Assembly: GCA_965207685.1 (NCBI GenBank)
Contig: OZ242294.1
Span: 1,027,896-1,091,895 of the forward strand
Direction: 5' to 3'
Source of the DNA: Thermodesulfobacteriota bacterium
Lineage (GTDB): Bacteria > Desulfobacterota_D > UBA1144 > Nemesobacterales > Nemesobacteraceae
DNA length: 64,000 bases
The translations under genes and the position numbers were made by a program. Of this stretch, positions 3,241 through 16,184 are shown piece after piece. The notes below the pieces were generated by a model, which saw nothing but the letters and a program-made list of their open reading frames with translations, was not told the DNA's origin and made no database searches. Position 1 is the first letter of the stretch. Every line of letters starts with the position of its first letter.

Positions 3241-4641
3241 ATGAATTCCAGAATAAAGACCCTGATTCTGCACACGCTCGTTTTACTCTTTGTGTTTCTG
3301 CCGGCGGCATCTTCTCACGCTGAAGTAAACCAGAAAAAGATACTCTCCTTTATTTCGAAAAATACCTCGTCGCGAAAGAAAATCGGAATCATGGTACGCT
3401 CCGCCGATACCGGCAAGACGGTTTTCCGCTACAACAGCAAAGAGAAATTCATTCCCGCCTCCAATAACAAAATACTTTCCTCCATAGCGGCGCTTTCCCT
3501 GCTCGGAAAGGATTTCCGGTTCAAAACGGAGTTCTACCTAGGCGGAGGAATACACTCGGGAGTCGGCCACGGCGGTCTTTACGTAAAAGGGTTCGGAGAC
3601 CCCACTATAGACATCGAGAAGCTAAGGGAGATTGCAGGGAAGATTAAAGCCCTAGGGATAACCGGAATCGAGGGCGGGATTCACCTAGACGGTTCGTATT
3701 TTGACGACGTCCTTTACGGAGAAGGCTGGGATCCCGAGTGGCGCGGCAAAAGCTTCTGCCCTCCCGTAACGGCGATTTCGTTCAATTACAACTCGGCCAA
3801 GATAAGAATTTCCGCATCCAGAGTACAGGGAGTCCCCGCAACGGTGAAAACAGAACCCGCCGAGTTTCCCTTCCCGATCAAAAACAGGGTTTCCACCAGG
3901 CTGAAAAGATCGGGGGTGAGAGCACAGTACAACGAACGGAACGAGCTCAGACTCTCCGGACACGTTTCCTCCCGCAAAAAAGCAGAAACCCTGGAACTTT
4001 CGGTGCCAGACCCGTTTTTTTACTTCGGGGCAACGCTCAAGAAAGTTCTTGAGCGGGAAGGAATCGAGGTAAGCGGACCCATAGAGCGCAGGAGAGTGCC
4101 TCGGTGGACCGGCAAAATATTCACCCATTACTCAGAACCTCTGGGGACCATTATCCATGAGTACAACAAAGAAAGCGTCAATATAATCGGAGAAAGCATA
4201 GTCAAGGTGATCGGGGCCAAATATCTCAATACCCAGGGATCATGGAAATCCGGCACATACGTAATTGAAAATCATCTGAGGAGAATTGGTCTTAATGGAA
4301 ACTTCTCCGTCGCCGACGGTTCCGGTCTTTCAAGGCTAAACAAGGTATCCCCCGAGGACATAACCGAAGCACTCCACATAGCCTACGAAGATCCGGACAT
4401 TTCCGAGGAGTTTGTTGCGTCCCTTCCGATCGCCGGAGTTGACGGAACCCTCAAGAAAAGATTTCGTAACCTCAAGGGCAAAGTCTATGCGAAAACCGGA
4501 TATCTTGAAGGAGCCAGATCCCTATCCGGCTACGCGTTCGCAAAAAACGGGCGGGTTTATGTTTTTTCCATCATATCAAACGGCATGGGAACAAGGGTGA
4601 AGAAACTTCAGAACCTGCTTCTTCGGGAGCTTGTCTACTGA
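3241..4641 (+). CDS. dacB: D-alanyl-D-alanine carboxypeptidase/endopeptidase (PBP4-like, peptidase S13)
   Basis: The ORF track starts at 3145 inside polA. The likely start is the ATG at 3241, giving MNSRIKTLILHTLVLLFVFLPAASSHA, a signal peptide. SxxK-like ASNNK, SGLSRLN and KTGYLEG motifs are typical of the PBP4/DacB family. Confidence 0.75.
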   Translation: MNSRIKTLILHTLVLLFVFLPAASSHAEVNQKKILSFISKNTSSRKKIGIMVRSADTGKTVFRYNSKEKFIPASNNKILSSIAALSLLGKDFRFKTEFYLGGGIHSGVGHGGLYVKGFGDPTIDIEKLREIAGKIKALGITGIEGGIHLDGSYFDDVLYGEGWDPEWRGKSFCPPVTAISFNYNSAKIRISASRVQGVPATVKTEPAEFPFPIKNRVSTRLKRSGVRAQYNERNELRLSGHVSSRKKAETLELSVPDPFFYFGATLKKVLEREGIEVSGPIERRRVPRWTGKIFTHYSEPLGTIIHEYNKESVNIIGESIVKVIGAKYLNTQGSWKSGTYVIENHLRRIGLNGNFSVADGSGLSRLNKVSPEDITEALHIAYEDPDISEEFVASLPIAGVDGTLKKRFRNLKGKVYAKTGYLEGARSLSGYAFAKNGRVYVFSIISNGMGTRVKKLQNLLLRELVY

Positions 4642-5453
4642 TTTATTGCGTGGAAGCTGTCGGCCAATCTCGCGAATTCCTCGACCGAGAGGGATTCCGC
4701 CCTTCTTCGCTGATCGATACTCGAGTCTGAAAGTGCCCGTTCAACGGTCCCCCTCTCAAAGAAGTTGCTGAGCGAATTCCTTATAGTCTTTCTCCGCGAT
4801 GAAAACGCATGCCTGGTAACGGTCCTGAAGGTCTTCTCGCTCGATACAGAAAACACGGGTTCCTTAAGCGGGTCGAGCACCACCGCCGCCGAGTCCACCT
4901 CGGGAACCGGATAGAACGCGCGCCGGGAAACCTTGAAGGCAAGCTCTACGCTGAAACAGCTCTGGAGAAGTACCGAGAGGGAGCCGTAGCTCTTCCGCCC
5001 CTTTGCAGAGGATATCCTCTGTGCCACTTCCTTTTGCAGCATCACTACTATCCTCGAGAAAAGTTCCCTTTCATCGAGAAGCTTAAGCAGAATCTGGGTG
5101 GATATGTTATAGGGAAGATTGGATACTAGCTTCGTTTTTTTCCCGTCGGAAAAGCGGCTGAAATCGACTTTAAGAACATCTTCGTAAACAAATTCGACAT
5201 TTGCAGACTCCCCGAATTTCTCGTCGAGAAAGGTTCTCAGTCTCTTATCTTTCTCAATTGCCGTGACTCTGCCGGCACCGTGTGCGAGATGCTCCGTGAG
5301 GCTGCCCTTGCCGGGCCCGACTTCAATCACATGATCTTCTTTTTGGAGCTTTGCGGTAGCGCAGATCTTACGGAGTATGTTGGGGTCGTTCAGAAAATGC
5401 TGTCCGAGCCTTTTAGTCTGATGAAATGCCTCTTCCTGTTTTCTTCCAAGCAA
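4635..5453 (-). CDS. rsmA: 16S rRNA (adenine1518/1519-N6)-dimethyltransferase
   Basis: KRLGQHFLNDPNILRKI...VIEVGPGKGSLTEHL... is the KsgA/RsmA signature with a SAM-binding GxGxG. Its 3' end is convergent with and overlaps the PBP4 gene. Confidence 0.9.
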   Translation of the reverse strand: MLGRKQEEAFHQTKRLGQHFLNDPNILRKICATAKLQKEDHVIEVGPGKGSLTEHLAHGAGRVTAIEKDKRLRTFLDEKFGESANVEFVYEDVLKVDFSRFSDGKKTKLVSNLPYNISTQILLKLLDERELFSRIVVMLQKEVAQRISSAKGRKSYGSLSVLLQSCFSVELAFKVSRRAFYPVPEVDSAAVVLDPLKEPVFSVSSEKTFRTVTRHAFSSRRKTIRNSLSNFFERGTVERALSDSSIDQRRRAESLSVEEFARLADSFHAINQ

Positions 5454-5488
5454 GAATATATCCTATGCTGTAGAAAAAACTTCTCGGG

Positions 5489-7465
5489 TTAAGAATCTAA
5501 TTCTGGTTCATCTATTGCTTCTAACAACCTGCTAATACGACCTTTCTCTTTAGATTTTTCGATATAGTTTTGGTAACTGATCTCCGCATCGTTGATTAGC
5601 TGCTGATAGGTAATCACACGGATATTTTTAGCTTCAAGCGTCTTTTCGGATTCTTCTTTACCTTTTTCACTATCCCAATCTTTCAATTTAGTTCCCACCA
5701 AGCAAATAGTTTCAATGGGACCATCTTCCCCCGCATCTTCAGCCTGTTTTTTAAGGGCTCTTCTGTACTTGTCTACTTGTCCGAGCAAAGAACTTGTCTC
5801 TGTTGATACACGAGCCCTTTTGAGCTCAATAATAATATGCTTTCCAGAGGACTTCTTGTATCGAATATCAATTCGACCCTTCTTTTCTTCTTCTTTTGCC
5901 TCTTCAGATATCTTATCAAAGGCAATTCTTACGTTTTCTTCCATGCTTGGAGTTTCTGTTGCCCTATCCCACGAAGGATCAAGTAACCATAGATGTGAAT
6001 AAATGTGTTTTTGGATAACTTTCTCTAAAGCATTTTTATCAGTATGTTCCTTGAGTTTACGGATAACATCCAATCTGCCCTTAGTAATTTCATAGTACCA
6101 AGATGCTTCAATGTCATCTAGTTCCGAAAACAACTGTACCGCAATCTCAAGGTTCTCAATATCAAGTTGATCCAATTGATTAAGTTTTTCTTTATGATGA
6201 AGATGTTCAAAAGCTAGAATACCATGCTTTAGAAGCGTCCTTCTGTGCTGCCCATCTGTTGCAATAGCATTGATCCTGCCGAACAACTTTCTTGCGGCAC
6301 TGCGTGCGTCACTTTTTAATCCTTGCAACCATTCATTAATTGCAGGAATCTCCTTTGCCTTTTCCTCACCTTCCTCTTCTTTATAACGAGCACGGTCTAC
6401 TCTTAAAAATTTCAATTCTTCTTTTACAAACTCTGATAAGCTAGAAAATCTTTCTTCATTTCGTATAAAATCCTGTCTGCTAGAAGTTGCTATATCTTCT
6501 CTTTCCGTTAAATCCAAAAAGTCCGCTTCTAGTTCACCTATCAAATATTTGGTATGCAAACCACCTTCCCTAAAGGTATCAAGAATGTTTTCCAAAGCGA
6601 CTTTACCTCGTGTCAGAACAGCCAGTTTGTTAAGATTGTCATCTCCATCTTGCAGGGACCCGGATTCCGTGACAAGACCTATCCATCCTTTTATATCATA
6701 ACCCTGCTCACTATTTATAATGCTTTTACGCTCTTTTATCCGTTCATCAGGAAGATGCTTAAAATGCGTCTTCTCGTAATCGCCATAAACTAATGCATAC
6801 TCAAGTTTATGGAAATAGTCTCTGTCACCAATGGTTACCTGCCTACCTCCTATAAATACGTTGAAATTGTCTGATAATATGCTGAAACGTCGGGAAATTC
6901 GTTTTCGCAAGTTATCATCAATTGACGATTGAATCCGTTTTTTTAGTTGTGATAAAACAATAATTGTCCCCGTTTCCGTTGATATCTCGTATTCAGAAGG
7001 AATATCAGATATGGGTTTCGGATAATGACGGTTGCCCTTTGTTATATCATTGCGAATATCTTCAACAACAAGTTCTAGACCTAAAGTTTGATCATCTTTT
7101 TTTGTGTAGATTTGGACATTGTCAGCAATAGAGAAGACAGACAGTTTGCCTATACCTTTTCTCCCCATAACCCTGCGACGTTTTTTGGGGGTAAGGTCAT
7201 CCTGCATATCTTTTCTGCGTTTATAGCCAACCGTCAGGAACTTTTTTCTTAGGTCCTGTTTGTTCATCCCGCAACCGTCATCCCTGACACTGATTATTTT
7301 CTCATCTTCTATCAAGGTAATATCAAGATACACTTCTCCCGCATCGGCATCCCAAGCATTGGCGATTAGTTCCGATAAAACGGCGGGAACGTTGCTGTAC
7401 AAGTTGAGCCCCAAATGCTCTAACGCATTTAAATCAATCTTCAGTTCATAATCTGGCATCAACAC
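5489..7465 (-). CDS. GHKL-superfamily (Bergerat-fold, MORC/Hsp90-like) ATPase fused to a C-terminal PD-(D/E)xK-like nuclease domain
   Basis: N-box LSELIANAWDA, G1 box VRDDGCGM, G2 box GRKGIGKLSVFS. C-terminus WLLDPSWDR...GRIDIRYKKSSGKHIIIELKRAR...QVDKYRR carries a D-(x)n-ExK restriction-endonuclease-like motif. The start overlaps the stop of the upstream C5-methyltransferase by 20 nt. The gene is AT-rich. Confidence 0.6.
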   Translation of the reverse strand: MLMPDYELKIDLNALEHLGLNLYSNVPAVLSELIANAWDADAGEVYLDITLIEDEKIISVRDDGCGMNKQDLRKKFLTVGYKRRKDMQDDLTPKKRRRVMGRKGIGKLSVFSIADNVQIYTKKDDQTLGLELVVEDIRNDITKGNRHYPKPISDIPSEYEISTETGTIIVLSQLKKRIQSSIDDNLRKRISRRFSILSDNFNVFIGGRQVTIGDRDYFHKLEYALVYGDYEKTHFKHLPDERIKERKSIINSEQGYDIKGWIGLVTESGSLQDGDDNLNKLAVLTRGKVALENILDTFREGGLHTKYLIGELEADFLDLTEREDIATSSRQDFIRNEERFSSLSEFVKEELKFLRVDRARYKEEEGEEKAKEIPAINEWLQGLKSDARSAARKLFGRINAIATDGQHRRTLLKHGILAFEHLHHKEKLNQLDQLDIENLEIAVQLFSELDDIEASWYYEITKGRLDVIRKLKEHTDKNALEKVIQKHIYSHLWLLDPSWDRATETPSMEENVRIAFDKISEEAKEEEKKGRIDIRYKKSSGKHIIIELKRARVSTETSSLLGQVDKYRRALKKQAEDAGEDGPIETICLVGTKLKDWDSEKGKEESEKTLEAKNIRVITYQQLINDAEISYQNYIEKSKEKGRISRLLEAIDEPELDS

Positions 7466-8603
7466 TCTCCAGATGATTTATTATGGAACTACCGATAGCG
7501 GTGGCTAAAAGGGGTGGTACAGCATTACCTATGTGCTTTCCGATAACAGAAAATGTGGGTTTTTCGCCGAGAGGACAAAACTTATAGTCTTCTGGAAAAG
7601 TTTGTAGTATTGCCCCTTCTCTGAGACTCAAAGCACGGTCTTGCTCAGGATGACCAAAACGCCCTGTCCCATAACCATGGAACTGAGTAGTAAGTGTCGG
7701 CGCAGGTTTATCCCAATTCATTCGCCCATAGACATTGTGGTAGGTTCCGCCACTACTTTTCCTGTAACAGGCAGGAAGCAACTCTCTTGGCCAATCTCTC
7801 CAGCTTCCTCCTGGTACCGAAGCTTGGATTCTTCTAAAATTGATAGGAGATAAAGACCTGCAGACATGCATTGGGTCTGTTGAGCTTGCTTCCCCATGGG
7901 CTAGATTTTCCAAGTGCCCGATAGCTCTTCTCACTGTAATGGGATCTTCAACCCTTTTTCCGGGTAGACAGATGTCTTCTAACAAAGAAGCAAGCAAGAC
8001 CAAACGACGTCGACTTTGGGGCACGCCGAAGTGTGCACATGGAATGATTCCATCAGCAATCTGGTAACCGTGCCTTCGCAGGGTACTTTTGAATTTACGA
8101 TAAACTTCCTTGCTCTTGAGTGCCGGTACATTTTCCATGGAAACAACTTCGGGCATTCCCTCGGTTACTAATCTCAAAAATTCATTAATTAGGTTCCATC
8201 GGAAATCCTCATTGTTCTTTCTATGTTTACTCGTGTGTGTAGAAAAGGGTTGACAAGGTGCACACCCAACCAGAATTCTATATTTTGCACCGTCAAAACA
8301 AGAGGAAATATCTGTGTAACTAACGTTCCTGATATCCGAATGAATAAACTCTGCCTGACAATTTTCCTCATAGGCATAGCGACAGGTTGCGTCAATGTCC
8401 AATCCTGCTACCACAGTGATTCCAGACTTCTGCAGTCCGTAGGACAACCCACCTATGCTGCAGAACACATCAAATGCCTTAGCAGAGACTGTAGACATCA
8501 TAGCTGGGGGATTGTTAATAACTGACTGACTCAAGGCTATGTCCTCTCTATTACAATAATAAGCATTGCAGAGCTTAGTAGCAATTTCCGCTTTATGCTT
8601 CAA
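7446..8603 (-). CDS. DNA (cytosine-5)-methyltransferase
   Basis: Motif I FCSIGGLSYGL, motif IV GCAPCQPFS (PCQ catalytic Cys), motif VI ENVPAL, motif VIII QSRRRLVLL, motifs IX/X LSLREGAILQTFP...IGNAVPP. Confidence 0.9.
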   Translation of the reverse strand: MKHKAEIATKLCNAYYCNREDIALSQSVINNPPAMMSTVSAKAFDVFCSIGGLSYGLQKSGITVVAGLDIDATCRYAYEENCQAEFIHSDIRNVSYTDISSCFDGAKYRILVGCAPCQPFSTHTSKHRKNNEDFRWNLINEFLRLVTEGMPEVVSMENVPALKSKEVYRKFKSTLRRHGYQIADGIIPCAHFGVPQSRRRLVLLASLLEDICLPGKRVEDPITVRRAIGHLENLAHGEASSTDPMHVCRSLSPINFRRIQASVPGGSWRDWPRELLPACYRKSSGGTYHNVYGRMNWDKPAPTLTTQFHGYGTGRFGHPEQDRALSLREGAILQTFPEDYKFCPLGEKPTFSVIGKHIGNAVPPLLATAIGSSIINHLESVDARL

Positions 8604-8615
8604 CGCAGTACAGTT

Positions 8616-9863
8616 TCAGGAATGATTACCGCCGAGCCTCTGACGCTCCTTGACCAACTCAACAAAGTCCTTGACGTTCATCAACCATTTCTGTTGTGCA
8701 GGACTATAGGAACTGAATATTACACTTGGCACAACAAGCTGTAGCCTCTCTGCCTGCATTTCGTCAGTCTGTCCCTCCGAAATTCCCGGTTGCAGCGTGA
8801 GTAGGTGCTTCTCCTCAATCTTGTTTGCCTCGGTAAGTACCTGCCGCCAACGGTCCTTGCAACTAGTCTTTACACCTAGCATTGTCAAGAGACCTGTATC
8901 AAAGTCAGGATCATGATACTGCTTTTCTCCAAGAAAGAGAAAATCGGGACCTCTACGCTTCTCAGTAGTAGCCTCGCGCGTGTATAAAACACCCTGTGCT
9001 TTCAGTATTGCCTCAACATGATGCCCAAAAGCCCATCCGGCTCGTGACTTTCGGCGATTCTGGATACTCAGTGAGAAACGCAGGAAGTCATCTACATCGG
9101 GAATGTCTACAAAGTTTTTTCTAATCTGATCGGCGATTATATAGCGTTCCAAGTGCCTAAACAATACTTCCTCGTGATCCATCCAAGTCGCCAGCGTCTC
9201 ATCGGGTGCTCCAACCGGATCAGCATCAGCAAGTGTGTCACGGGCAAAACCAGAGAATTCCGCAGTTCCCGGAAATCCATCTCCATATCTGGCAATTAGT
9301 TCTTCCAATGCATCGGACGGCTGTGGTGCCTCCAATTCAATGCCAAAACCATCAAGAATTGCCCTAGCACTATAACCCAGATGAATGCCTTCATCGGTCC
9401 CAAGAATTTTTGCTTCAACCCTCCGCCCCATTAGATCAAGTCCGAAGAGCCAAAGTAGCTGACGGGCAATTGTTGTATTCGCAGGACAAAGTATTACATG
9501 CAGGCTTTGTTCCCTAGTCTTCGCAATAACGAGAAGATCGCCCGCCTTCGCTCTGTGGACAATTGCTTCGGATTCAGCACTATAGTAAAGATGATATTCT
9601 GCCGAACGGGCAGGGTTGTTCCTTCGAACATCACTCCAAGTGCAAAAGGAATTTGAGACTGCTGGTTCCTCGTCTTCCTCATCATCTAGCCAGTGAAAAG
9701 TGGAAGAAAATCTGATTTTCTCGGCCGATTTTCCGAGGAACTTGCGAAAGCTGCTGACCCCTTGGAATTCATGTTGGTTCGAACGCAGCTTGTTGACTTC
9801 TACTTCGGTAAGGTATTTCGCCCCCACACCCTCGAAAAAATCAGAAAGAATGCCAAATTTCAC
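8616..9863 (-). CDS. EcoRII-family (Type IIE) restriction endonuclease. The catalytic C-domain is conserved and the N-terminal domain is divergent.
   Basis: The C-terminal half aligns closely with the EcoRII catalytic domain as I recall it: SIQNRRKSRAG, GPDFLFL, LGVKTSCKDRWRQVLTEANKIEEKHLLTLQPG, LQLVVPS. The N-terminal 170 aa shows no obvious resemblance to the EcoRII B3-like effector domain. A 4-nt ATGA overlap with vsr. Confidence 0.75.
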   Translation of the reverse strand: MKFGILSDFFEGVGAKYLTEVEVNKLRSNQHEFQGVSSFRKFLGKSAEKIRFSSTFHWLDDEEDEEPAVSNSFCTWSDVRRNNPARSAEYHLYYSAESEAIVHRAKAGDLLVIAKTREQSLHVILCPANTTIARQLLWLFGLDLMGRRVEAKILGTDEGIHLGYSARAILDGFGIELEAPQPSDALEELIARYGDGFPGTAEFSGFARDTLADADPVGAPDETLATWMDHEEVLFRHLERYIIADQIRKNFVDIPDVDDFLRFSLSIQNRRKSRAGWAFGHHVEAILKAQGVLYTREATTEKRRGPDFLFLGEKQYHDPDFDTGLLTMLGVKTSCKDRWRQVLTEANKIEEKHLLTLQPGISEGQTDEMQAERLQLVVPSVIFSSYSPAQQKWLMNVKDFVELVKERQRLGGNHS

Positions 9864-10321
9864 GGGCTTCTCTCTCCTATGATCTGATCTTCAGGATCAT
9901 TGCCCACTATCCAAGTGCTAATGCGATCCATAAGAGTTTCAAAGTCAAGGCGTTTTTTGCCCTTAAGTGCACACTCCCATACTATAAGATATCTCCAGCC
10001 GTTTTCTAAAACAGAAGTCCGAACTTCTGCATCGCGCTGGCGGTTTCGATCAATCTTGGTTTGCCAAAATTCCGATCGTGTTGAGGGCATTCTAAAAAGA
10101 TGGCAGTCATGTCCGTGCCAAAAACAACCATGCACAAAAATCGCAGCACGGTAGCGTGACAAGGCTAGATCAGGTTTCCCACAGATTCTAGTAGAATGAA
10201 GCCTGTAGCGAAAACCGCGCGCATGCAAAGCCTTCCGGATCACCATTTCTGGCTTGGTATTTTTTCCTCTGACGCTGGACATTATCCGGCTGCGCGTTAA
10301 CGCATCCACTGTGTCAGCCAT
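9860..10321 (-). CDS. vsr: Very-short-patch-repair endonuclease
   Basis: 153 aa. SRIMSSVRGKNTKPE...RGFRYRLH...PDLALSRYRAAIFVHGCFWHGHDC...W.KI.RN..RD is the full Vsr signature. The start overlaps the stop of the upstream C5-methyltransferase by 1 nt. Confidence 0.9.
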   Translation of the reverse strand: MADTVDALTRSRIMSSVRGKNTKPEMVIRKALHARGFRYRLHSTRICGKPDLALSRYRAAIFVHGCFWHGHDCHLFRMPSTRSEFWQTKIDRNRQRDAEVRTSVLENGWRYLIVWECALKGKKRLDFETLMDRISTWIVGNDPEDQIIGERSP

Positions 10322-11424
10322 CAGGTCGCCACAACTTCCTCAGAAGCATAGTTCAAAGCTTTTTCACTGTTCAACAGATATGGAACCATGTAACGGGCTA
10401 TACATTCCACAACGGGTACGGCAACCGCGTTTCCAAACTGTCTGTATGCTTGGTTGTCACTGACCGGAATCAGAAAATCCGATTGGCCCGGTCCGTCGAA
10501 ACCCATGAGGCGCGAACATTCTCTAGGTGTCAACCTTCGCGGGTTGCCTTGCTTGCGCCTTACAAGAATCTCCGAACCATCCTTGTAGTAGCGTGCGGAA
10601 AGAGTACGAGCTACATCCTCAGATCCTACAAGCCCAAAGCCAAATCCGTTTCCACGTCTGCGATGTTTCATTGCATAATCCTGAAGGTATCGCCACAATC
10701 TATCAGATAGAGTGTACTTGCTGTTCACGCGGCCTTCGTAGTCGGTATAGTGCTTGTCCTTCCCTTCGGTTCCATCTTCAGGGTGAAGAACTGTCCCCAG
10801 TCGTGGCCCCTTAAGGGGATCAGGAATGTAAACATCTTCAAGGGAAAAATCCGTCCGCTCACGAAAACCTACAATGAAAATGCGTTCGCGGTGTTGAGGA
10901 ACAAATCCTTTGGCATCAATCACCCGACAGCTTATATGATAGCCCAAGTCATCCACAAGAGTTTTGCGAATAATCCGAAAAGTATTTCCCTTATTGTGAT
11001 TGACAAGGTTTTTTACATTTTCAAGCAAAAATGCCTTTGGCCTGTGATGTTCAATGATCCGTGCCAAATCAAAGAACAGAGTGCCTTGGGTTTCGCAACG
11101 AAATCCGTGTGCATGTCCAAGGGCATTTTTCTTGCTTACTCCTGCAATCGAGAAAGGCTGGCAGGGGAAACCCGCCAGAAGAAGATCATGCTTCGGGATA
11201 TCAGTGACATCCACATACCTGATGTCACCTGCCATAATATGATCCTCACAGTCACGGTAATTGGCCAGATAGGTTTGCTGGGCATATTTATCCCATTCGC
11301 ATGTAAAGGCACAATACCCTCCTAAGCTATCAAAACCCTGACGCAATCCCCCGATCCCCGCAAAAAGATCAATGAAGCGGAAAGAATTTGTTGTATAAAG
11401 AGAATTTCCCTTGTTCCCCTTCAT
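10321..11424 (-). CDS. DNA (cytosine-5)-methyltransferase (dcm-like partner of vsr)
   Basis: Motif [11 protein letters not shown], motif [10 protein letters not shown], motif VI ENVKNL, motif [14 protein letters not shown], motif [15 protein letters not shown], motif [14 protein letters not shown]. Translationally coupled to vsr, as in the canonical dcm-vsr arrangement. Confidence 0.9.
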
Positions 11425-11794: not shown

Positions 11795-12520
11795 TTATCG
11801 CCGGATGTATTTTCTGATTTCTCCCATTGACAAGCAGACATCTTTTCGTCTGTGTACCATGCGGTGGCAGTTCGCGCATAGGACGACAAGATCAGTTGCA
11901 GGATTTGTTTTTCTCTTACCAGCGTTGTTTGCCAATGGCAGAACGTGATGAACTTCAATGAAGCCCTTACCTATCTCTCCATAGCACTCTTCAAAGTTAA
12001 AACCACAGGCCATGCAGTCGTAACCGTGTATGTCCAGCGCATTTTTTCTAAGCGCAGAATTGCGTTCGCGCCCGACTGAGATGTAGACTCGCTCACCGCC
12101 TTCCGTTCTCACATTCTGTGAAGCAGCATGAGTGGGTTCAGGCATGTTGTTTAGCAGGTCAAGCACAAATATTTCCAACTCTTCGTCAGAACAATCCCCC
12201 CATTCCTCGACTACGTCCTTGAATCTATTGCTCAGAGAGCGCTGCCGACCGTCTCTGTCTTTCCATCCAATACGGCCATTAGGGAACAAGGGATCGAAGG
12301 TGTCACGAGTATTCTTCATGCTGTTACGGAACTGCGAAGGTGTGCGACCATCACCTAAGGCATCGTAGAAAACGTCATACGCCGCATTCCAAGTTGTGGC
12401 ACGTAGTGCGACTGGTGGTCCGGCTGGCCCGTTGGACCTATGCTCTCCGCATCGGGCCAAATAGTAACTCGCAGTTATCATCTCCAATGACCGCTCGACG
12501 GGATTCGACGATTTTTTCAT
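11795..12520 (-). CDS. HNH-family endonuclease with an uncharacterised N-terminal domain (candidate restriction enzyme)
   Basis: The C-terminal beta-beta-alpha-Me zinc-finger nuclease motif is CMACGFNFE...EVHHVLPLANNAGKRKTNPATDLVVLCANCHRMVH. The roughly 150-aa N-terminal region has no recognisable motifs. It lies 370 nt upstream of the dcm-like methyltransferase on the same strand. Confidence 0.65.
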   Translation of the reverse strand: MKKSSNPVERSLEMITASYYLARCGEHRSNGPAGPPVALRATTWNAAYDVFYDALGDGRTPSQFRNSMKNTRDTFDPLFPNGRIGWKDRDGRQRSLSNRFKDVVEEWGDCSDEELEIFVLDLLNNMPEPTHAASQNVRTEGGERVYISVGRERNSALRKNALDIHGYDCMACGFNFEECYGEIGKGFIEVHHVLPLANNAGKRKTNPATDLVVLCANCHRMVHRRKDVCLSMGEIRKYIRR

Positions 12521-12674
12521 AGTAATCCTATATCATAGATTTTACACAGCATCAAAGGATGGTGTACAAGGGGAAAGAAACGAGGGATGAAAAAACCGTA
12601 TGAATAAAAACAGGCGCTTATACTATATAACCGCAGCCAGTTGCACCATTAGCGAAGCAATGGATTTTCAACCC

Positions 12675-12687
12675 TTTTGCAACCACA
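12675..12687. repeat. Copy A of a 13-bp direct repeat TTTTGCAACCACA (16/18 over the extended match) that brackets the GHKL four-gene module
   Basis: It lies in the intergenic region between the last module gene (stop 12707) and the HNH gene (start 12520). Confidence 0.5.
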
Positions 12688-12706
12688 ATAATATCCCAAA
12701 ATAAAA

Positions 12707-13462
12707 CTAGGCTGTTTTCAGTCTGTCCACAGCTTGACCTGCACATTCTTGAACAAACGCATCGGCTTCTGACTCGCTCAGTGCTTCAAAGACGATTCCA
12801 CCGCCTTGACGGTTGAGTACTTTCATGAACTCGCGAAAGTTCTGTTCGGCATCGGTAATCCATTCCCGTGTATCCATTGCCCGCAGAACAGCACCTGCGA
12901 TGTTTCTGCGGCTGCTCATCCAAATTCGCTCGACAAAGTTACTTCTGATGTCAGCGGTTTTCAGGATAAGCTCTAAAGCCTTATCTGTATTGTCTGGCAT
13001 GCAGGTTCGTGCAATGTGATAGTTCCACCATAGTCGCGACAGTGCATGGTCGTCACGAATGATTGTTTGAGTGGGCGCAAAGAAATGCCTTTCTATGGCG
13101 GAAACAAGATCCTCACCTTCTTTTCCTGTAAGCCAGCGTATTTTACTGTATTCAAATGCTTCCAGATGAGAAAGACGGACCCAGATACGCTCTTCATTCG
13201 CCAGTGATGGTGTCAGATTTTCCAGTGCCTTGCCGACAATTCTTGAATTTGCAAGATCAATCTCGATAATTCTGCGTTGCCGTGTCGTATGAAGCGTAGC
13301 AAGGAGATTCCCGTCGAAGTTGACTTTCGCAGAGATATCCCATGACGCTAGAGAAGCATATTCCTCAAAACCATTACCGGTATACCGCTCAATATTTTTT
13401 TGGATAGAGTTTTTAAGTTCGGACAACGCACTGTCTGAGAGATATTTAAGAGGTTCATTCAT
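12707..13462 (-). CDS. Hypothetical protein (last gene of the GHKL-ATPase module)
   Basis: A 251-aa ORF with coding-like composition. Its start overlaps the stop of the upstream ORF (ATGA, 13459-13462). I recognise no motifs. Confidence 0.45.
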   Translation of the reverse strand: MNEPLKYLSDSALSELKNSIQKNIERYTGNGFEEYASLASWDISAKVNFDGNLLATLHTTRQRRIIEIDLANSRIVGKALENLTPSLANEERIWVRLSHLEAFEYSKIRWLTGKEGEDLVSAIERHFFAPTQTIIRDDHALSRLWWNYHIARTCMPDNTDKALELILKTADIRSNFVERIWMSSRRNIAGAVLRAMDTREWITDAEQNFREFMKVLNRQGGGIVFEALSESEADAFVQECAGQAVDRLKTA

Positions 13463-14292
13463 CCGATGGACTCCTTTATGACTTTTATAGTTGCCCCTAG
13501 CGGTTCTCTTAGGAGTTTCTGTGCAACCTCAAGAGGCGATAAAGTATCATCTGACGGATCGATGCCCATATCGTCACATTTCGCCCCGAAAACTCTGTAC
13601 CAGCGTTTTCCCTGCAAGCTCTTGTCTATCTGAAGTCTTGAGACAATGTCCATGACGGCTGGCATGTAGACAGTGTTAAGAAGAATTGTGCGTCCCTCAA
13701 GGATGTTTCGCATGTTGGCGATGGACTTATAGGTTTCCGGTTCTGCCAGAATTGTAATCTTGTCCCCGTCAGGATCAACATTGATCATTCCCGGGTTAAT
13801 ATCTTCCCTCTGAGCCAAGTCGAATATAGTTTCAAATGGTTTGAATTTCTGCTGATCAATCGAAAATCGGAATTCCGGCCCCATAGCTATAACTGAACCT
13901 TTCGTTATGACGATGTCTTTGCCGAATTCATTGTCAATTAGAGGGCTTGAATAATTTCCGACATCTTCAAGAGTCCATATGACGGGACGCAGAGAAACCG
14001 CTCCATAAAGTCGACTTAATTCAAAAAATTTTTCCGATTCTCCGAGTGAAGCAGGCTGAAGGTAATTGAAGTATGTGCGTCTGCATATAGCAAAATATCC
14101 CGCGGAAGCCTTCTGATTTTCGATAAGAACTCTCAATTCATCACAGTTAATGGAGAAGTTTGAAACGATTTTCAACTGGTCCTCGTCAGTAACCTGATGA
14201 GAGAAAGACGCAGAAAACTCGCCAGTCGTATAATCGGAGGAAAATTCACTTAGAACAGGGTGCGGATAACGCATTCTCTCATTCAGCTTCAT
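13459..14292 (-). CDS. Hypothetical protein (third gene of the GHKL-ATPase module)
   Basis: A 277-aa ORF whose start overlaps the GHKL gene stop (ATGA, 14289-14292). I recognise no motifs. Confidence 0.45.
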   Translation of the reverse strand: MKLNERMRYPHPVLSEFSSDYTTGEFSASFSHQVTDEDQLKIVSNFSINCDELRVLIENQKASAGYFAICRRTYFNYLQPASLGESEKFFELSRLYGAVSLRPVIWTLEDVGNYSSPLIDNEFGKDIVITKGSVIAMGPEFRFSIDQQKFKPFETIFDLAQREDINPGMINVDPDGDKITILAEPETYKSIANMRNILEGRTILLNTVYMPAVMDIVSRLQIDKSLQGKRWYRVFGAKCDDMGIDPSDDTLSPLEVAQKLLREPLGATIKVIKESIG

Positions 14293-16184
14293 GCTGCTTC
14301 TCCTGTTTGCTGTTCTTCCTCAACACGGGAAGCTAAGATCTCTACGGGGCCAGTATAAGGGGCATCAAAGACCACATCAATGCTGGTACGCCGACCCGCT
14401 GTACAGGCTACTACAACAGCATTATTCTTGATTCGGCCTTCTGATGTGCTTACCGGGTTCAAACGTTCAGAAGCTGTCAAGCCGGTTGCATCAGCATAGA
14501 GCACAATATCTGCAGAGACGGGTGAAGTGAATTTGATCTGCTTTTTACTTGGGTTCGACCTGTCCGGTATCAGGACGCGTTCTGATATCAGTTTAACCGG
14601 TTTCATGATCTTCTTTGGACGCGGTGTTGGTTCGGGGTCCGGCGGTGGTGGGTCTGGATCCGGAGAGGGTTCGGGACCGGGTTCGGGACCAGGGTCGGGG
14701 CCGAGGGTCGGTGGCTGGGATCTCACAGGCTTGACGGGCGTGAGCTTTTTTGATTGGGGATTTGTTTCCATCCCAGCATCATCTTCGATTCTTTCTTCAT
14801 CCGAGGCAAAAAATTCATTCAGTTCATCAAGTTCCAGCGTATTCGATGGCTGTGACATGGCCAACTCTCGAATTCTGCCGCGTATTCTTTTTGCAAGTTT
14901 TTCAAAAACTTTCTGCCCTCTGGCTCTGAGTTCAGGGTCGGTTATCTGCTCTGCAGACAGACTGTCATGGCGGGGGTTTTCAAGTCGTTTGAACCACTCA
15001 CCTTCGTTTTTACCGGCAGGCTCTATAATTACAGCGAAATTGCGGTGGAGAGGGAAGCGTTTGAAGGGTTCATCAAAATAGGAAAGATTGTCGGTGATAT
15101 ACATGCCGTTACGAATGATGCCTATTGTATATCCAAGGCCGTCACGCATCAGCATGTGCATGCGAACCGTTCCCAAGCCTTCAATCTCAAGAAAGCTTTT
15201 CGTGGCGTTCTGTTTGTCAATCAGGCAGGCGTGGAGGATTTTCGCTGCGTTGAACGCAACACGTTCATTAAGCTCATCCACAGCCTTGTTGACCTTGCTG
15301 TCGTTGAAAAGTTCCTGAAGTGTTCCGCGATTAATTTTGATCAACCCGTTACCAATTTCAAATTCCATTTCTCGGCGCTCTATGGCACAGAAAAAATTCA
15401 TCAGGATTGCGGCCGCCATTTCGTAGCGCCAGTCCGTCCGGTTATTACGCATACAAATACAGAAAATTGAGGTTCCCTGTTTATCACGCAGAAGCCATTC
15501 CGGAATTTCACGGGGACTGTCTAACGGCATATACCCTTTCGGTTTGCCCCAGTATCCCTTCCGTCTTTTTTTCTTTCCGTCTTTTCCCGTATGAGAAATA
15601 AATTGTGTTTTTCCCATGCAGAGAACCTGTCTGTCTCCGCTCTCATCTGTGTAGAGAGTTGAAATGAAGACAGTATGGATATCTGAAAGGGCAAAAGTCG
15701 CATTCTTACCTATGCCGAAAGAACCACCAGAGTCTACGTCATCCTTTACGCTGATGCCGTCAGTTTTAGCAAGCGTATGGAAGGGCGTGCCCTCTTCACA
15801 TGGTCCACGAACGCCTTTCGTATTGAAATCTGAGATTCTGAGAACCTTGATTTTTTCTGCATTAAGGGTTTTCAAAGCGTTTTTGAAGAAGCCTTTTCCC
15901 TTCTCATTATTTGCTGCAACCGATTTATTCAAGCAGAGTTTTGCGGCTTCTCTATACTGCTTGATAGACGGAAATTTCTCTGACTCTACCCTCATAACAT
16001 CGAAAGTAACTTTTACGGGTTTATTAGCATCGTCGCAGGCGTCGCGGCTGTTCTGGCCTGTCTCACGAGCAGCTGTGGCGAATGGATTCTCCTGAAAAGT
16101 TGATATACCTCCTTCATTGAGGCCTTCAGCTTCTCCCCCTACATTGGGTAAAAATTCAAGTCGTATTTCACTCATCAATTGCAC
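14289..16184 (-). CDS. GHKL-superfamily ATPase (Hsp90/MutL/MORC-like Bergerat fold) with a Pro/Glu/Asp-rich linker and a small C-terminal domain
   Basis: N-box AARETGQNSRDA (E-x3-N-x2-D-A), G1-like LRISDFNTKGV, G2 box DSGGSFGIGKNATFA. This is followed by about 300 aa of unknown fold, then the linker GPDPGPEPGPEPSPDPDPPPPDPEPTPRP, then a roughly 100-aa beta-rich tail. It is not a paralog of the 5489-7465 GHKL protein. Confidence 0.6.
   Translation of the reverse strand: MQLMSEIRLEFLPNVGGEAEGLNEGGISTFQENPFATAARETGQNSRDACDDANKPVKVTFDVMRVESEKFPSIKQYREAAKLCLNKSVAANNEKGKGFFKNALKTLNAEKIKVLRISDFNTKGVRGPCEEGTPFHTLAKTDGISVKDDVDSGGSFGIGKNATFALSDIHTVFISTLYTDESGDRQVLCMGKTQFISHTGKDGKKKRRKGYWGKPKGYMPLDSPREIPEWLLRDKQGTSIFCICMRNNRTDWRYEMAAAILMNFFCAIERREMEFEIGNGLIKINRGTLQELFNDSKVNKAVDELNERVAFNAAKILHACLIDKQNATKSFLEIEGLGTVRMHMLMRDGLGYTIGIIRNGMYITDNLSYFDEPFKRFPLHRNFAVIIEPAGKNEGEWFKRLENPRHDSLSAEQITDPELRARGQKVFEKLAKRIRGRIRELAMSQPSNTLELDELNEFFASDEERIEDDAGMETNPQSKKLTPVKPVRSQPPTLGPDPGPEPGPEPSPDPDPPPPDPEPTPRPKKIMKPVKLISERVLIPDRSNPSKKQIKFTSPVSADIVLYADATGLTASERLNPVSTSEGRIKNNAVVVACTAGRRTSIDVVFDAPYTGPVEILASRVEEEQQTGEAA
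14628..14713 (-). repeat. Imperfect 12-nt tandem repeat inside the GHKL gene, encoding a Pro-Glu/Asp-Gly linker
   Basis: GGGTTCGGGACC occurs twice exactly, with degenerate copies on both sides. On the minus strand this translates to GPDPGPEPGPEPSPDPDPPPPDPEPTP. Confidence 0.7.

Follow-up and report, generated by a model that had tools for sequence, protein, structure and literature searches.

The closest described counterparts of the locus analysed here are the restriction enzymes of the HgiDII and BbrUII systems. BbrUII is an isoschizomer or neoschizomer of SalI and, in B. breve UCC2003, one of the three Type II systems that have been characterised. For HgiDII, which was described as a conventional Type II enzyme, an ATP requirement has to our knowledge not been reported. 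We know of no family member whose structure has been solved or whose need for ATP has been tested, and thus these enzymes offer a tractable system for studying what a MORC-type ATPase contributes to such minimal restriction enzymes. R.HgiDII carries a GHKL domain at its N-terminus, and its C-terminal domain was "unassigned to any fold" in 2008 (PMC2441816, 2008). Both M.HgiDII, which acts on GTCGAC, and M.BbrUII are m5C methyltransferases (PMC5867850). The paraMORC3 proteins combine GHKL and S5 domains with a C-terminal restriction-endonuclease-fold domain carrying E-D-ExK residues; they are sporadic and laterally mobile, are encoded beside cytosine methylases and Vsr, and were predicted to loop DNA in complex restriction-modification (R-M) systems (Iyer, Abhiman & Aravind, 2008). 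In VcSduA, the substitutions E27A (ATPase) and K557A (nuclease) each abolish phage defence (2025; PMC12137116).

The ATPase-nuclease architecture has already been published for R.HgiDII (2008), paraMORC3 (2008), GHKL-Shedu (2023) and VcSduA (2025). The statement of an earlier sequence-only reading that such proteins remain experimentally uncharacterised is outdated, since the Type II systems HgiDII and BbrUII have been characterised and mutants of VcSduA, which has a like architecture, have been published. Given that NCBIfam has a curated model of the family, that REBASE lists prototypes (HgiDII and BbrUII) and that three computational or experimental treatments of the architecture are in print, the present locus matters little as a discovery. 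Within the 64 kb of DNA analysed (the window), the segment 8501-5489 on the reverse strand is, with a probability of about 85%, a self-contained two-gene Type II R-M system of the BbrUII/HgiDII family.

Restriction gene and domain organisation of its product

The restriction endonuclease gene (5489..7459, reverse strand) begins at ATG 7459, ends with the stop codon TAA at 5491-5489 and encodes 656 amino acids. The longest frame (5489..7465, reverse strand) starts at GTG 7465 and had been read as a protein of 658 amino acids; this open reading frame is real, but the ATG is the better start. A Shine-Dalgarno sequence, GGAGAG, lies at 7470-7465, which is 5 nt upstream of the ATG and overlaps the GTG codon; in addition, a public protein identical to the window protein (P0001) has 656 amino acids, and the alignment to the family model begins at residue 6 of the GTG-started protein. 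The junction with the preceding methyltransferase gene (7446..7470, reverse strand), as read from the sequence, comprises the GGAGAG motif, the ATG codon (7459-7457) and the methyltransferase stop codon TGA (7448-7446). The restriction gene indeed starts inside the end of the methyltransferase gene, as had been noticed earlier, with an overlap of 14 nt and not 20 nt because the ATG is the preferred start.

The restriction protein matched the NCBIfam equivalog NF050001 ("BbrUII/HgiDII family restriction enzyme") with 732.3 bits against a cut-off of 550, and its residues 6-651 aligned end to end with positions 1-659 of the 659 of the model. Seven divergent homologs scored 718-805 bits on this model, and the window protein (732 bits) ranks second lowest of the eight. 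On the basis of this model, the protein is assigned to the BbrUII/HgiDII family, and it also matched the PADLOC REase_II model PDLC03419 (E 9e-83). Homologs in plasmid records were annotated only as "ATP-binding protein".

Domain analyses revealed that the protein is a MORC-like GHKL ATPase with a transducer, connected through a helical linker to a PD-(D/E)xK nuclease at the C-terminus. The GHKL (Bergerat) ATP-binding domain (6920..7459, reverse strand; approximately residues 1-180) carries motif I (E30/N34/D37), motif II (D60-G62-G64), motif III (G99-RKGIGKLS-107) and motif IV (G164-T165), and Pfam HATPase_c_3 matched residues 28-142 (E 9e-19). The transducer (S5-like) middle domain (6470..6919, reverse strand) covers residues 181-330 with approximate boundaries, and the all-helical linker (6050..6469, reverse strand) covers approximately residues 331-470. 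In the full-length AF2 model, which is of moderate confidence (pLDDT 75), the linker is modelled with lower confidence as long helices at residues 336-471, and pLDDT drops below 50 over residues 434-458. The nuclease domain (5492..6049, reverse strand; approximately residues 471-656) contains the conserved residues E479, D531, E545-L-K547 and Q561-x3-Y565 and was matched by Pfam PDDEXK_4 at residues 510-636 (E 5.9e-5; 23.5 bits against a cut-off of 22.3). The motifs ELIANAWDA, DDGCGM and GRKGIGKLS, together with D-x13-E-L-K (DIRYKKSSGKHIIIELK), are all present, and the sequence-only reading of an N-terminal Bergerat ATPase joined to a C-terminal nuclease of the PD-(D/E)xK fold was borne out on both counts. 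Motifs I-IV of the ATPase, and likewise E, D, ExK and QxxxY of the nuclease, were invariant in 79 of 79 sequences, so that the catalytic residues are conserved. Sequence searches of the PDB gave no match to a profile of the C-terminal domain even at E 10, and only Hsp90/HtpG N-terminal domains with the full-length profile.

Judged by its published description, paraMORC3 resembles the window protein closely: both have GHKL and S5 domains, those of the window protein with intact ATP-binding motifs, and the RecB-like nuclease domain of the window protein has E479, D531, E545-x-K547 and Q561-x3-Y565 invariant. Both also occur beside cytosine methylases and Vsr and are sporadically distributed. The two differ in that DNA looping in complex R-M systems was predicted for paraMORC3, whereas the window enzyme belongs to a minimal two-gene system. 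MORC proteins proper share a characteristic sequence motif that is missing from paraMORCs. The ATPase modules of eukaryotic MORC/SMCHD1 and of bacterial MutL are more distant, with only 14-19% sequence identity, and the window protein has no CW domain, coiled-coil/hinge or MutL C-terminal endonuclease, its nuclease being instead of the PD-(D/E)xK type.

Partner methyltransferase, synteny and recognition site

The cognate C5 cytosine DNA methyltransferase gene (7446..8501, reverse strand) probably starts at ATG 8501 (351 amino acids) and not at TTG 8603, to which the open frame extends. Its product matched Pfam DNA_methylase (PF00145; E 5e-49) and TIGR00675 (122 bits), and is 97% identical to a methyltransferase from a Candidatus Dadabacteria metagenome-assembled genome, which makes a member of Candidatus Dadabacteria the probable host.

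The survey of gene neighbourhoods within 4 kb covered 76 related genome loci, which belong to many bacterial phyla and to some archaea. In 62 of these, the gene directly upstream of the restriction gene, in the same orientation, is an ortholog of the window methyltransferase (44-69% identity among those linked), and this very tight M-R synteny across bacteria and archaea is an addition to what was known of the family. No EcoRII-C homolog was present within 4 kb of the restriction gene in any of the 76. Together with the full-length membership in NF050001, these counts indicate that the protein acts as restriction enzyme in an M-R pair of its own, and the link to a C5-methyltransferase, proposed earlier from the overlap of the two genes, is upheld. 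Four of the 76 homologs (L061, L062, L066 and L072) lack a C5-methyltransferase within 4 kb, and the solitary copies of the family include three in tandem in a Cenarchaeum genome. The distribution of the restriction gene is patchy and of the horizontal-transfer type, covering distant phyla and also plasmids. As in R.HgiDII and R.BbrUII, a full-length equivalog match is accompanied by an m5C methyltransferase encoded immediately upstream and, as in R.HgiDII, by an N-terminal GHKL domain; the window gene pair differs in residing in another host.

The recognition site is probably GTCGAC, that of M.HgiDII, by analogy within the family. Among the linked orthologs, the target-recognition region of the methyltransferase is conserved as strongly as the catalytic core, and this accords with a common specificity. 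GTCGAC shows no depletion either in the window, where 10 sites were counted against 12.4 expected, or in 80 pooled loci, where its ratio was 0.75 (rank 13 of 64 palindromes). As no signal of avoidance of GTCGAC or CCWGG was found in the window or in the 80 pooled loci, avoidance gives this specificity no independent support. The M.HgiDII homolog of H. volcanii pHV1 was not among the methyltransferase matches listed.

Relationship to Shedu and predicted mechanism

The nuclease domain has a Shedu-type elaborated PD-(D/E)xK fold, and this fold, with its fully conserved active site, is what the present analysis adds for the C-terminal domain of R.HgiDII, to which no fold had been assigned in 2008. 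The Pfam SduA_C model (SduA, DUF4263; PF14082) gave 22.7 bits on the window domain, below the cut-off of 27, and matched weakly in 20 of 25 homolog nuclease domains; no Shedu model appeared among the PADLOC matches of the window protein at E<0.01. The likeness to VcSduA and Shedu type 1D (GHKL + DUF4263) lies in the three-part architecture and in a nuclease whose nearest fold is Shedu SduA. However, VcSduA is encoded by a single gene without a methyltransferase, and the window system, with its partner methyltransferase, most likely discriminates self from non-self via methylation, unlike VcSduA.

It is improbable that the protein is a stand-alone, VcSduA-like (type 1D) Shedu nuclease that would respond to an infection signal via its GHKL domain independently of methylation, the methyltransferase being separate or orphan. 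This reading draws on the architecture shared with VcSduA and paraMORC3, on the closeness of the nuclease domain to SduA and on the few solitary family members, but the overlap of the genes and the recurrence of the same methyltransferase ortholog are the signature of an R-M pair, the REase_II models match strongly where those of Shedu do not, and the SduA_C score stays below its cut-off.

For the two-gene Type II system, the following mechanism is proposed. The C5 cytosine methyltransferase encoded by the first gene would mark the recognition sites in the DNA of the host itself, and the second gene, with its own ribosome-binding site within the end of the methyltransferase gene, encodes the restriction enzyme. 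Judging from other GHKL ATPases, bound ATP would dimerise the N-terminal GHKL domains into a clamp, which in turn would license two C-terminal nuclease domains (E479, D531, E545, K547, Q561) to cut unmethylated DNA. A bolder and rather doubtful proposal is that the nominally Type II enzymes of this widespread family are mechanistically a methylation-gated Shedu, in which cleavage would need an ATP-driven GHKL clamp cycle as in VcSduA. If this were true, the family would be an evolutionary and mechanistic bridge from single-protein Shedu immunity to classical R-M. It would also serve as a bacterial model of the way in which MORC-type ATPases read cytosine methylation, and the solitary copies lacking a methyltransferase, such as the Cenarchaeum tandem trio, would represent the Shedu-like state.

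Adjoining EcoRII-like genes and the low-GC island

Upstream of the M-R pair, and on the same strand, lie the genes for EcoRII-C (8616-9863), Vsr (9860-10321) and a Dcm-like methyltransferase (10321-11424). The sequence-only reading suggested that the GHKL-nuclease could serve this EcoRII-like system as an accessory or as a second, ATP-dependent nuclease, with Type IIE or Type IV-like character. The position of the gene directly after the Dcm-Vsr-EcoRII-C genes speaks for this, as do the MORC operons with EcoRII-like nucleases described by Iyer et al. Nevertheless, the accessory role is very unlikely and was abandoned: EcoRII-C is absent from all related loci while a specific methyltransferase partner recurs, and the protein itself is a full-length equivalog classed as a Type II restriction enzyme (NF050001) with its own M-R pair. 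Moreover, the two gene sets are separated by a gap of 114 nt (8502..8615, reverse strand) with a promoter-like site, TTGCTA-17-TATTAT, at 8584-8556; this site is weak evidence, because a scan for promoters and terminators found them in the region no more often than expected by chance. Nothing in the analysis pointed to a Type IIE or Type IV enzyme, and a Type IV (methyl-dependent) enzyme was rejected because the overlapping, co-encoded methyltransferase would make it self-toxic. The adjoining Dcm-Vsr-EcoRII-C genes are a separate, independent system.

The M-R pair, the Dcm-Vsr-EcoRII-like system and a PDC-M33 candidate system share a low-GC defence island of about 10.7 kb, bounded by rsmA and an ftsB-like gene; no tRNA gene was found at its border. 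A MutL- or NucS-like repair enzyme that would deal with T:G mismatches jointly with the C5-methyltransferase and Vsr, and not act in defence, is likewise very unlikely, for the weak matches to MutL N-terminal models and to NucS and the Vsr gene found within 700 nt after the restriction gene in 13 of the 76 loci are outweighed by the patchy, horizontally transferred distribution, the location in this island, the family-level match to characterised restriction enzymes and the fact that Vsr commonly accompanies any C5-methyltransferase. The restriction gene of the Type II pair has a GC content of 38.7%, the lowest of any 1971-nt stretch in the window, where such stretches have a mean of 49.4% (sd 3.7%). 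Its composition is AT-rich and atypical for the window, as had been noted, but the earlier wording "very AT-rich" was overstated.

Gene order and defence island

The gene encoding the restriction protein most likely starts at ATG 7459 (5489-7459, -) instead of the GTG of the 658-aa-type open reading frame (5489-7465, -), because a Shine-Dalgarno sequence (GGAGAG), which itself overlaps the GTG codon, lies 5 nt upstream of this ATG, a public protein of identical sequence has 656 aa, and the alignment to the family model begins at residue 6 when counted from the GTG. Residue numbers are those of the 656-aa protein. The overlap with the C5-methyltransferase gene upstream (open frame 8603-7446, probable ATG 8501, -) is therefore 14 nt; the sequence-only reading had rightly described the two genes as overlapping, but with an overlap of 20 nt.

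Downstream of this pair lies rsmA/ksgA (5453-4635, -). On the other side, a gap of 114 nt separates the pair from genes encoding a protein that carries the C-terminal catalytic domain of EcoRII (EcoRII-C; 9863-8616, -; residues 235-401, E 1e-64), a Vsr mismatch endonuclease (10321-9860, -) and a Dcm-like C5-methyltransferase (11424-10321, -). A promoter-like site is located in this gap, between both gene sets (8584-8556), but it is weak evidence because the count of such sites across the region was not above chance. Further upstream, beyond the Dcm gene, lie the gene of a 241-aa HNH-domain protein and, after it, genes C, B and A of PDC-M33, a candidate defence system in PADLOC (together 11795-16184, -; E 1e-30, 3.5e-43 and 1e-93 for C, B and A, respectively), the C component being Pfam DUF6339. 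The region from 5.5 to 16.2 kb (~10.7 kb), with two restriction-modification systems and the HNH/PDC-M33 genes, is a defence island, since these genes sit between housekeeping flanks: polA, a D-Ala-D-Ala carboxypeptidase gene and rsmA at one end, and at the opposite end an ftsB/DivIC-like gene among others. No other stretch of gene size in the window is as low in GC (mean 49.4%, sd 3.7%) as the restriction gene (38.7%), which supports horizontal acquisition of this gene. The nearest relative of the partner methyltransferase (97% identity) was found in a Candidatus Dadabacteria metagenome-assembled genome.

In the EcoRII-like protein, the catalytic C-terminal domain was the only recognisable part; its N-terminal ~230 residues matched no Pfam family, the EcoRII-N effector domain was not detected, and a different sensor domain may be present there.

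Family and active sites of the restriction protein

Pfam analysis of the restriction protein revealed HATPase_c_3 (residues 28-142, E 9e-19) and PDDEXK_4 (residues 510-636, 23.5 bits, narrowly over the 22.3 cut-off), and all motifs quoted in the sequence-only reading were found. Its observation of a GHKL ATPase and nuclease gene overlapping a methyltransferase gene was confirmed. The decisive result for the identity of the protein was its match to the NCBIfam equivalog NF050001, "BbrUII/HgiDII family restriction enzyme", which covers the full model (positions 1-659 of 659) and scores 732 bits where the curated cut-off is 550. An independent PADLOC assignment, to PDLC03419 (E 9e-83), is to a Type II REase model. 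On NF050001, seven divergent homologs, whose sources include Actinomadura, Streptomyces, Maribacter, Cenarchaeum and Methanoregulaceae, scored 718-805 bits, and judged by these scores the restriction protein is an ordinary member of the family that has diverged slightly. It is a new member of an already known, curated family.

Alignment of 79 full-length homologs, archaea included and with identity down to about 40%, revealed that the four GHKL motifs of the MORC-type ATPase were kept in all of them (E30, N34, D37; D60, G62, G64; G99-S107; G164, T165), and the nuclease residues E479, D531, E545, K547, Q561 and Y565 were likewise invariant (79/79). Of the outcomes that the sequence-only reading had named as refuting it, neither a C-terminus that fits no nuclease model nor unconserved catalytic residues was found. 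[quoted passage not shown] A search with this domain alone against 1.84 billion cluster representatives returned 507 relatives at E<=1e-3, of which 111 reached E<=1e-30. In the listed top 150, nearly all long proteins had ~625-710 aa with the domain at ~440-690, and those of 147-598 aa seem to be fragments; the nuclease domain thus appears essentially confined to the GHKL-nuclease architecture.

Known systems and proposed mechanism

For the BbrUII/HgiDII family, Type II restriction is established, as is the partnership with an m5C methyltransferase. BbrUII is reported to be a SalI iso- or neoschizomer, and HgiDII is not known to require ATP. Bifidobacterium breve UCC2003 has three characterised Type II systems, which limit its transformation; M.BbrUII is an m5C methyltransferase of this strain, and the m5C methyltransferase M.HgiDII has been characterised experimentally, with GTCGAC as its site (PMC5867850). 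Iyer, Abhiman and Aravind (2008; PMC2292703) described paraMORC3, which combines GHKL, S5 and a C-terminal RecB-like restriction-endonuclease-fold domain carrying E-D-ExK motifs and occurs together with Vsr and cytosine methylases. GHKL-fused Shedu proteins are listed as type 1D (Gu et al., 2023), and VcSduA, which joins GHKL to DUF4263 and was "previously annotated as paraMORC3", acts in phage defence, a function abolished by E27A (ATPase) or K557A (nuclease) alone (Adams et al., 2025; PMC12137116). The earlier description of such proteins as experimentally uncharacterised is out of date in view of VcSduA and the HgiDII/BbrUII systems.

The analysis shows the gene pair with its overlap, the folds of the domains, intact active sites and a conserved synteny. 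In the proposed mechanism, the methyltransferase would protect host GTCGAC sites; on ATP binding the GHKL domains would dimerise to form a clamp, as they do in GyrB, MutL and MORC, and this clamp would allow the paired PD-(D/E)xK domains to cleave sites that lack methylation. Site counts gave no independent support for the specificity: GTCGAC was avoided neither in the window (10 observed vs 12.4 expected) nor in the pooled loci. One of the ten sites in the window, at 8009, lies inside the methyltransferase gene; the restriction gene has none.

Partner methyltransferase and synteny

Scanning one genome from each species gave at least 550 loci with homologs of the restriction gene; the 80 best were kept, and these span Rhodothermales, Latescibacterota, Poribacteria, Chloroflexota, Actinomycetota, Bacillota, Nitrospinota, Thermoproteota and others. 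Among the 76 of these with enough upstream sequence, an ortholog of the partner methyltransferase (>=38% identity over >=250 residues, same strand, ending <=200 nt from the restriction-gene start) was present upstream in 62, with 44-69% identity for all but one of those listed, whereas an EcoRII-C homolog was found in none (0/76). The linkage to a methyltransferase and the domain composition proposed from sequence alone stand; the proposed role of accessory to the EcoRII-like system is rejected, as the two genes show the pattern of a cognate methyltransferase-restriction (M-R) pair. The Dcm-Vsr-EcoRII-C genes are a second, independent system. Of the loci lacking the ortholog, most had a different C5-methyltransferase or a disrupted one nearby; four had none. 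In the linked methyltransferases, the target-recognition region was conserved as strongly as the catalytic core, in line with one common specificity.

In 13 of the 76 loci, the first 700 nt after the restriction gene hold a directly following Vsr gene, giving an M-R-V module; the sole Vsr in the window belongs to the adjoining Dcm/EcoRII-like system. On several plasmids (hits H32, H44 and H47), methyltransferase orthologs (46-50% identity) adjoin a "MAE_28990/MAE_18760 family HEPN-like nuclease" and not the GHKL-nuclease, which suggests that the partner nuclease has been exchanged around a conserved methyltransferase.

Orphan members at four related loci (L061, L062, L066 and L072) were full-length with intact active sites, scored >760 bits on NF050001 and had no C5-methyltransferase within 4 kb. 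The locus L062, in a Cenarchaeum metagenome-assembled genome (OY282369.1), carries three tandem copies (10-1071, 3983-5959 and 7097-9070), between which lie a DDE transposase gene and unannotated open reading frames of ~356-393 aa.
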